A stretch of DNA of 63,913 nt, counting the filler, from Collodictyon triciliatum (lineage: Eukaryota): the NCBI GenBank assembly GCA_043381765.1. It is 30 parts of 30 records of this genome, joined end to end, with 100 filler letters (N's around TTAATTAATTAA, not from the genome) between each part and the next. Parts side by side here need not be neighbours in the genome. Positions count along the whole stretch, not along the records: positions 1 to 2,010 come from JBHJMP010009730.1; 29 more parts are not named here. The stretch is one strand, 5' to 3'. The first letter of the stretch is position 1, and each line of letters opens with the position of its first letter. Below, piece after piece: positions 69-1,984 of this stretch. Position numbers and translations under genes: made by a program. The notes under the pieces are model-generated. The model saw only the letters and a list, made by a program, of their open reading frames with translations. It had not been told where the DNA came from and made no database searches.

Positions 69-260
69 GAGTTATTTTACGGACGTTGCTTACGTGACGC
101 AAGTGACACGCCAACGGTTGACGCAAAACAAATTATATTCATAAATACTAGAAGGGGTATACCAATCGAAAGACTGGTGTGCTAGTATCCAAGGTCTCAT
201 CACTTTTTTCACAAAGATTGTGTAGTGGTGAAGGCTGCCAGGAAAGACCCGACAGCCGGT
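69..260 (-). ncRNA. Candidate Fanzor omegaRNA scaffold / element right end
   Basis: Overlaps and follows the Fanzor 3' end. Three predicted stem-loops (197-231, 145-188, 84-116) in a more GC-rich stretch, ending next to a TA at 67-68. Confidence 0.55.
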
Positions 261-1984
261 TTTTTTAGAGAGAGGTGTATGCATAATTTTTTTTGAAGGA
301 TTGGAAGAACTTTGTTGAGTATATTATTAGTGCTGTTAAAGTCACTTGTCAAGAATACACTTTGTTTGCTTTCTAAGCGATTGCATTCTTTACATAAGAG
401 ACATATATACATCTTTTTTCGTATTTCCTTTCGGTTTCATATATTCCAGTTCTTTTTCGCAGTTACGATACATCTTGGAGGTTCTAAAGTCATCTACGCT
501 AACTGTTTCAAAGCGTTTGAATACTATTTTTCGTAATCCTCTTCCGATTTTTAGCATAAAATGGTTCATCGGAGATTTTCTGCTCCAGTTTCCATACGCA
601 AGTACAGCATCCTTGCCAGATGTCTTTTCGATTCGGTTCATACACAATTGTTCACTTCTTTTTGTATTAACATACTGTATCCATCTCATCTTTCGAAAAG
701 TCACGTGTTCATAAAATCTGGAAAGGTCTATATAGTATCTTGATTTCATAGATAAATATTTTCGAAAAAAAATTCATAATCGACCGTGCATGAATTATGT
801 TTACTCAGTTCTATCTCTAAATCGATGTAAGATACTCTTAATGTCTCAAACTGCTGGTTCTCTTCAAAAGTCATGAGACCAAAATAAACAGCACTTTGTA
901 AACCTGTTGCCATGCATATCCCTGAAGCATTGTACTTTTTTTTTTATTCTTTTTATCGCGCAAGAGTATTTTGTGATTTTTAAGAGATTTGCTATCATGT
1001 CTTATTTGGTGTGCTGTGTAACGTAATTTCTTACCTGCCTCATCCACCACGTAAACCAAATTAAACTTGCCTGCGTCCACTCCAACTATTTTTTTTTCCC
1101 TAGTAAAGATAACTGCTCTTCGGAAAGTTCATCTTTATAAATACACTCTTGGGTTTTTTTTTCATTTTATTGGAATATTGAATTTGAAATACCTTTCTTT
1201 TCAAATAATAATGACACCGCCAAGCCGTCTGCTTGTATCATGTATTTAAAACTGTAGCCTGTTTGATGAAAGAGTCTCTTCTTCATTTCAAAGAACTTAT
1301 CCCATAGGGTCTCTTTGCATCCTGATATATTCTTCATTAATTATATTTTTCCAGATAATACTAATAGACCTATCAAATATGTGGTATCTAGAGTAACATA
1401 ACATGGTATATTGTTAGTTCTCATAGATTGGTTGAAAAGGTTTGGTTCCAATGTTCTCGAAAATGAGATTCATGGTAATCAGACAGGGTATGTCCTTATT
1501 TTGATTGACTTTGATGTCATATTCGATACATTTTACAATATCGCTGGGAATGATACGATGCAAATGCGTTATAGCCCATTCCTGATATTGCTCCGGTATT
1601 TCGAGATTCTTGAAGATGGCTTTTTTTTAACTTTCGTAACTCTGCCTTTTTAACAGCTTCCGTAATATTCTCATATTAAGGAACTGTTTGATTTATAAAG
1701 TGCAGTAACCTCTTTACAAAATGTTCTTTAATTTTATTATGATAAGCTGTTAACACTTGCTTCGCCAGGTACGGTAATACATGAGACAGTCTAACCAACG
1801 GAAAGCGTTCTTCTCGGGACAAAAGGAATCGGAAATCATAATGATAAAAACTCATTATGTCTTCTCTCATTTCTTGACAGCTACACTTCGAATCGAATAA
1901 AGGAAAAAAAATCTCTCATTTCTGGATGTTTTAAAAATCTTGCAGGTCTATCTTGTGAAACGATTCCGATTGTCTTTAAAGCGA
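209..1984 (-). pseudogene. Fanzor1 (eukaryotic TnpB-derived RNA-guided RuvC nuclease), frameshifted and 5'-truncated by the contig end
   Basis: Collinear fragments in shifting frames: LPYLAKQVLTAYHNKIKEHFVKRLLHFIN; EYDIKVNQNKDIPCLITMN..KPFQPI/MRTNNIPCYVTLDT; RuvC-I IVGVDAGKFNLVYVVD..KLRYT; LEIELSKHNSCTVDY; FYEHVTFRKMRWIQYVNTKRSE; VLAYGNWS..GRGLRK..KRF; RuvC-II VDDFRTSK; Zn-finger remnants YRNC and CKEC; RuvC-III SDFNSTNNI. Confidence 0.9.

Follow-up and report, generated by a model that had tools for sequence, protein, structure and literature searches.

The window analysed here, a stretch of 63,913 bases, is made up of 30 unrelated contigs of about 2 kb joined by spacers (44 N, TTAATTAATTAA, 44 N). 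A Fanzor1-derived pseudogene lies at positions 221–1994 on the minus strand, in contig 1 (positions 1–2010). Because the stretch is a concatenation of short contigs, the genomic context of this relic is limited to those 2010 bases, and everything past position 2010 is unrelated to it. One end of contig 1 is a (TTTTTTG)n simple repeat (1–60, unstranded) and the opposite end is a poly(A) run (1985–2008). Simple repeats at contig ends are typical break points in fragmented assemblies, and these two are assembly break points that lie outside the gene. The remaining contigs encode generic eukaryote-type domains (WD40 and PDEase_I), and contig 29 encodes a capsid-like protein, which we record as a lead only.

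Fanzor1 nucleases, which occur in eukaryotes and giant viruses, descend from the transposon nuclease TnpB; each cuts DNA as directed by a guide RNA that derives from the 3′ end of the element carrying it. The relic was compared with P0001, an uninterrupted 648-amino-acid protein that was the better of two relatives among 212 candidates (word-based search, longer proteins). In a tblastn search of the 30 contigs, P0001 matched contig 1 in seven ordered segments running from 1994 to 221 (E values from 1e-84 to 5e-7; summed E value for the contig, 1e-84), and no segment with E < 0.1 was found on the 29 other contigs. The stretch is collinear with residues 76–642 of P0001, and 329 of 545 aligned residues (60%) are identical in a frameshift-aware alignment. 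About 75 N-terminal residues are absent from the relic because contig 1 ends in a poly-T/A run. By these alignments the motif blocks are real and collinear with a single protein, well past what chance would give. The first-pass annotation had described the Fanzor1 blocks as complete and correctly ordered on the minus strand, and had put forward a frameshift-aware tblastn search as the check; the search returned a single collinear Fanzor1 protein with the motifs where they had been described. The extent first given, 209–1984, needs a slight adjustment, the homologous stretch being 221–1994.

The assignment to Fanzor1 was examined at the level of fragments, of P0001 and of the family. The fragment encoded by 390–773 matched Fanzor1 structures in the PDB directly (Parasitella, E 1.4e-8; Spizellomyces, 1e-4; Guillardia, 6e-3); the other two of the three core fragments (871–1128 and 209–436), searched singly, gave no Fanzor match in the PDB. 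Six minus-strand fragments searched against Pfam gave nothing at the curated cut-off, and one of them, carrying RuvC-I, had a sub-threshold match to OrfB_IS605 (E 0.0024; 18.5 bits, where the cut-off is 30.5). P0001 matched Fanzor1 chains only (Guillardia, E 2e-28; Parasitella, 3e-24; Spizellomyces, 4e-23), and its long N-terminal half aligns to Fanzor1 alone in the PDB search. A family profile built from 13 relatives (alignment A1) matched the Fanzor1 chains with E values of 4e-73, 9e-72 and 7e-58, the next PDB matches being TranC and Cas12m (E 0.07–0.24), and positions 4–608 of the profile align to the Fanzor1 of Spizellomyces punctatus. On the strength of these matches, the relic is a Fanzor1 homologue, in keeping with the original description of it as a Fanzor1 relic: the only significant PDB matches are Fanzor1 proteins.

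The solved Fanzor1 proteins of Parasitella parasitica (9cf0), Spizellomyces punctatus (8gkh) and Guillardia theta (9cer) are thus homologous to the family over the whole length of its profile. They have the same motif order, namely a DPG-type RuvC-I, the Glu six residues ahead of the first CxxC, a C4 zinc finger and an RD-type RuvC-III, at low sequence identity. The relic differs from them in being a pseudogene, with an altered Glu, zinc-binding Cys and DPG Pro, a broken frame and stops. Like the family, TnpB (IS200/IS605 and IS607) and Fanzor2 combine a RuvC-like nuclease and a zinc ribbon, but none of their chains matched the family profile at E 0.05, none was listed at E ≤ 1, and the OrfB_IS605 match of the relic fragment is the one that falls below the Pfam cut-off.

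The catalytic and zinc-binding elements can be followed through the relic one by one. RuvC-I reads GVDAG (1069–1077 for DAG) and keeps its catalytic Asp (1075–1077), and the family-invariant Pro of the DPG motif is Ala (P365A, 1072–1074). At the RuvC-II catalytic position, within VDDFRTSK, the relic has Asp (489–491) where P0001 has E555 and 13 of 13 aligned relatives have Glu, six residues ahead of the first CxxC. The C4 zinc finger spans 383–470 with a frameshift near 413 between its CxxC pairs; the first pair reads YRNC, a Tyr at 468–470 replacing Cys (C562Y), while the other three Cys (459–461, 392–394 and 383–385), and with them an intact second CxxC (383–394), are kept. RuvC-III reads SDFNS (341–346), with its Asp in place (341–343) and the nearly invariant Arg before it changed to Ser (344–346). 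The first-pass annotation had read all four of these features in the same way (both Asp retained, VDD for VDE, and one zinc-finger Cys changed to Tyr), and the alignment agrees on each. The arrangement corresponds to published descriptions of Fanzor1: sections of Bao and Jurka (PMC3627910) give the motif as D ... [TS][TS]xx-C4 zinc finger ... RD with a conserved Glu, E536, and parts of another paper (PMC10711439) describe the DPG motif and a rearranged catalytic Glu six residues ahead of the first CxxC. Of the 37 columns that are invariant across the 13 relatives, the relic keeps 28, and of the 21 that are nearly so, 14; the nine invariant residues that have changed are I257V, T312A, P365A, R388I, E391D, Q528P, P534L, E555D and C562Y.

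The reading frame is broken repeatedly. Seven frame changes, near 1900, 1621, 1425, 1090, 950, 760 and 413, span 413–1900, and tblastn runs through frames −2, −3, −1, −2, −1, −3, −2 and −3 along the relic. Six of the seven fall within A or T runs of 6–10 bases, and sequencing and assembly errors also cluster in such homopolymers. Two further frameshifts near the C terminus (288 and 269), suggested by the frameshift-aware alignment, were rejected, tblastn reading 418–221 in one frame. To the split frame that had been noted at the outset, we add in-frame TAA codons at 1676–1678 (Glu in P0001), 1341–1343 (Tyr in P0001) and 1167–1169, the last being TAT (Tyr) in most related contigs of sequencing runs X1, X2 and X3. 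A fourth TAA (944–946) adjoins a frameshift, and the count of in-frame stops is hence three to four. Because the frame is broken again and again and residues essential for catalysis and zinc binding have been exchanged, the relic reads as a dead Fanzor1 copy from which the enzyme cannot be made, as had been proposed, and RNA-guided cleavage would be expected to be absent for this copy.

The relic has many relatives of its own kind. Four sequencing runs (X1–X4) were compared with the stretch at 80% likeness or more, X1 and X3 representing two coded organisms from one study; depths and counts from these runs refer to assembled contigs, not reads, and are no measure of copy number or transcription. 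There were 354 matching contigs in X1 and 329 in X3, 80–100% alike and spread across nearly the entire stretch, and 10 and 6 in X2 and X4. Their identities are graded: the classes of 99% and above, 95–99%, 90–95% and below 90% hold 24, 87, 131 and 112 contigs in X1 and 19, 85, 121 and 104 in X3. These hundreds of pieces at graded identity show that the relic belongs to a multi-copy repeat family whose members have diverged. In the search of sequencing runs, at most 0.11 of the sampled words were found in any run, and no RNA run was among the matches.

Single sites within these contigs bear on the lesions. At 1167 the T>A difference has a depth of 108.7 of 143.7 in X1, 85.4 of 85.4 in X3 and 4 of 6 in X2. 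At 1621, contigs amounting to a depth of 34.9 of 183.1 in X1 lack one base of the A run; as it is a minority that differs there, this frameshift may be common to many copies rather than private to the relic. Contig 1 itself comes from what looks like short-read assembly of repeated sequence, and several copies may have been merged in it into a chimera. P0007 and P0148 are frames from other broken copies, with frameshifts that differ from those of the relic, and they match it partly via its out-of-frame translation. In P0148 the Glu of VDEF and the first Cys are retained, as is the RD motif, and the frame runs on unbroken at 413; P0006 has the Cys-to-Tyr change in common with the relic. Public data hold both related copies and an intact relative, P0001; the first-pass annotation had supposed that intact relatives may exist in the genome itself.

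In a quick maximum-likelihood tree of 35 rows, for which the careful search was unfinished, the relic groups with P0001, P0152, P0153 and P0003 (SH-aLRT 99). Its end branch measures 0.59, against 0.06–0.09 for P0001, P0152 and P0153, each of which is a single uninterrupted frame. Every other full-length protein found is at most 46% identical to P0001. The group around this branch is large. With a 127-amino-acid fragment alone as query, 1023 representative clusters were retrieved at E ≤ 1e-3, and 159 when the threshold was E ≤ 1e-10; of 599 candidate metagenome stretches, 587 were confirmed, and 242 full-length proteins at E ≤ 1e-20 were found among 7037 candidates. The suggestion that the copy could belong to an uncharacterised Fanzor family was not upheld: by these searches and the tree, P0001, P0152, P0153 and P0003 form a small branch inside a very large Fanzor1 group, not a family of their own.

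Fanzor1 genes are described as spread through protists and giant viruses and linked with Mariner/Tc1 and other transposons in portions of two papers (PMC10530073, PMC10432273), and the relatives of the relic offer a view of such carriers. In the closest loci with sequence context, a transposase (HTH and DDE_3) precedes Fanzor1 on the opposite strand; L001 carries two such transposase–Fanzor1 units and L002 one. A DDE_3 transposase lies within 2.5 kb upstream in 17 of the 55 loci that have at least 1.5 kb of upstream sequence, with 18 of all upstream DDE_3 matches on the opposite strand and one on the same strand, and downstream in none of the 55 loci that have at least 1.5 kb of downstream sequence. 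L001, L002 and L003 are units of about 3.3 kb within the same 32-nt inverted ends, the right end of L002 beginning 15 nt past the stop codon, and the inverted end recurs at four mismatches or fewer in 33 of 80 relative loci. The contigs bearing the nearest relatives are up to 258 kb long, densely coded and intron-free, and carry single-frame genes for Rpb2, topoisomerase IA, DEAD and SNF2 helicases, Hsp70, DnaJ and ribonucleotide reductase. Because of this dense coding and gene content, we infer that these contigs are giant-virus genomes.

With a DDE_3/HTH transposase divergent to Fanzor1, a length of about 3.3 kb, 32-nt ends and a place on giant-virus-like contigs, such units resemble, by published description, the mariner/Tc1-borne Fanzor1 elements of large DNA viruses, for example PGv-1 of Phaeocystis globosa virus (Bao and Jurka 2013, PMC3627910). 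Contig 1, in contrast, has neither a transposase nor inverted ends of the L001–L003 type, and identity between these elements and the branch of the relic does not exceed 46%. The search for an associated transposase, proposed at first pass, came back empty on the 30 contigs, where the DDE_3 transposases of the relatives had no match at E ≤ 1; DDE_3 was met only in the loci of relatives. The 32-nt inverted end reached a best local score of 9 on contig 1, against a mean of 10.0 and a maximum of 16 for shuffled sequence. By analogy with its nearest relatives that have sequence context, the relic was probably carried by a Tc1/mariner-like (DDE_3) element.

The guide RNA of Fanzor1 (omegaRNA or fRNA) is a structured RNA whose coding stretch lies at the gene's 3′ end and extends to the end of the element. 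On the minus strand of contig 1, positions 61–300, comprising the 3′ end of the frame and the stretch downstream of it, fold with a minimum free energy of −63.6 kcal/mol in the sense direction (z −5.24; none of 200 shuffles folded as well), against a z of −0.27 on the plus strand (75 of 200 shuffles did). In a scan of contig 1 with 240-nt sense-strand segments, 91–330 had a z of −3.9 and 211–450 a z of −2.3, the remaining thirteen ranging from −1.9 to +0.55. The 3′ region of the relatives contains a conserved hairpin with compensatory changes at 7 of its 10 pairs. A covariance model of that region (R1) scored 3.9 bits (E 4.3) at the expected place in the relic, 106–167 on the minus strand, and its best match on contig 1 overall was at an unrelated place (12.4 bits, E 0.16); in view of the E value of 4.3, a likeness of the relic's 3′ region to this hairpin that had been seen by eye was dropped. 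Rfam at gathering scores had no match on the whole 63,913-base stretch. The structured 3′ stretch is a candidate remnant and may be a former omegaRNA scaffold.

We consider it highly probable that a Fanzor1 gene has decayed at 221–1994 on the minus strand, as one copy within a diverged multi-copy family, likely derived from a multiplied mobile element; a likely history would be that a Fanzor1-bearing element multiplied and that its copies were then left to mutate. Had the gene remained intact in the organism, the frame changes would be homopolymer-length errors or a chimeric collapse of repeat copies. The position of six of the seven in A/T runs speaks for such errors; a multi-copy family invites chimeric assembly, and the simple-repeat ends of contig 1 are those of a fragmented short-read assembly. 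Slippage in homopolymers does not, however, account for three to four in-frame TAA codons, which are base substitutions, nor does the intact-gene explanation sit well with changes at 9 of the 37 invariant positions, among them the catalytic Glu and one Cys of the zinc finger. The independent public copies P0007 and P0148 are, moreover, frameshifted as well and at other places, and we regard an intact gene as very unlikely. Breaks of biological origin, whether introns, programmed frameshifts or TAA used as a sense codon, are scarcely credible. Neighbouring tblastn segments meet end to end or share a few bases, which leaves no room for introns and on that account excludes them, even if introns occur in many eukaryotic Fanzors according to parts of one report (PMC10530073). 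All four stops are TAA, as reassignment of that codon would have it, but opposite the TAA codons P0001 has Glu, Tyr and Leu, not one constant residue, and frames of 474, 638 and 579 codons in other contigs of the stretch are free of TAA, TAG and TGA under the standard code; TAA for these reasons acts as a true stop in this assembly. The close relatives P0001, P0152 and P0153 are also uninterrupted.

A different origin for a decayed copy is conceivable, in which the relic is a piece of integrated or contaminating sequence of giant-virus or virophage type rather than a transposon resident in the host. A branch (P0001, P0152, P0153 and P0003) whose identity to the virus-like group does not exceed 46% is not what this would lead one to expect, and hundreds of diverged pieces in two runs look less like a viral gene present once than like a genomic repeat in decay; when viral contigs were scanned with P0001, none of 36 candidate stretches was confirmed. 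What speaks for a viral source is that the nearest relatives with context sit on the long, dense, intron-free contigs with Rpb2, topoisomerase IA, Hsp70, DnaJ and ribonucleotide reductase, that one relative, P0177, is labelled viral metagenome, and, as a lead only, that a capsid-like protein is encoded in the same stretch. On balance we judge a viral piece unlikely and favour a decayed member of a multi-copy Fanzor1 family.

A single dead copy of Fanzor1 would be no surprise, relics being expected wherever Fanzor-bearing transposons were active. This one points further, to a large diverged Fanzor1 repeat family in the source organism and in two related coded organisms. The closest full-length relative of that family is P0001 (648 amino acids, intron-free), with which no other full-length protein found shares more than 46% identity; the next-closest relatives are mariner-type elements on giant-virus-like contigs. 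Tentatively, and with the chances weighted against it, one may go on to suppose that the relic marks a thinly sampled, host-resident Fanzor1 branch that parted from the Fanzor1 genes borne by mariner elements of freshwater giant viruses and later expanded in related protists, with a recent virus–host transfer in either direction, and that intact, possibly active members remain. On that same speculative footing, the branch would be intron-free, encode proteins of about 650 amino acids and be present in dozens to hundreds of copies. If intact copies do exist in the host, they would offer compact RNA-guided nucleases to test and a case for studying the exchange of elements between giant viruses and their hosts.

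Among the metagenome relatives of the decayed Fanzor1 pseudogene, three loci on giant-virus-like contigs carry complete two-gene elements of about 3.3 kb: L001 (positions 1010-3932 and 6588-9912), L002 (8637-11952) and L003 (174-3503). Each element consists of a DDE_3/HTH transposase gene, divergent and adjoining Fanzor1, and is bounded by inverted ends of 32-38 nt that are common to different metagenome contigs. L001 additionally harbors a unit of a different kind, in which a 573-aa protein matching Cas12f1-like_TNB is accompanied by a separate DDE_3 gene of its own and by 23-nt inverted ends. 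Aligning 34 metagenome Fanzor1 loci at their 3′ ends (alignment A4) revealed a conserved hairpin immediately before the right inverted end (columns 81-140), with compensatory changes in seven of its ten pairs. This hairpin is probably part of the guide RNA of the metagenome Fanzor1 elements.

The Tyr that occupies the first zinc-finger Cys position of the pseudogene (window 468-470) recurs in P0006, a 134-aa protein fragment from another source that is 60% identical and reads LYCNC at this site. The common Cys-to-Tyr replacement could date from a common ancestor within a dead subfamily, or it could be a recurrent G-to-A change.

The window itself (1-63913) strings together 30 separate contigs of 1991-2956 bases apiece, many of which start or end in simple repeats, and the spacers between them have the form N44-TTAATTAATTAA-N44. 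The ‘genes’ that adjoin across these spacers are not genomic neighbors anywhere.

Large WD40-repeat proteins are encoded on contig 2 (window 2743-4119) and contig 15 (29493-31357), and their repeat unit, ...GPNGENW[LM]ASGS...IRIWDV..., is near-identical between the two. The former also contains pentapeptide repeats, while the latter runs on into another, different repeated module. Upstream on contig 2, the short AT-rich gaps that separate the frames look like small introns. The plus-strand frame of contig 9 with a PDEase_I (3′,5′-cyclic nucleotide phosphodiesterase) domain (17062-17850, E = 8e-20) is a signaling gene of eukaryote type.

A 579-aa open frame on the minus strand of contig 29 (59928-61667) has no Pfam match. 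In the protein atlas it lies closest to clusters of viral capsid-like proteins from Nucleocytoviricota and Preplasmiviricota, some with Capsid_N, Capsid_NCLDV or Sputnik_MCP domains; these clusters score 0.97-0.98, although with low recognition (1859). The frame may encode the major capsid protein of a virophage or polinton-like element present in the Collodictyon triciliatum assembly that contains the Fanzor1 pseudogene.
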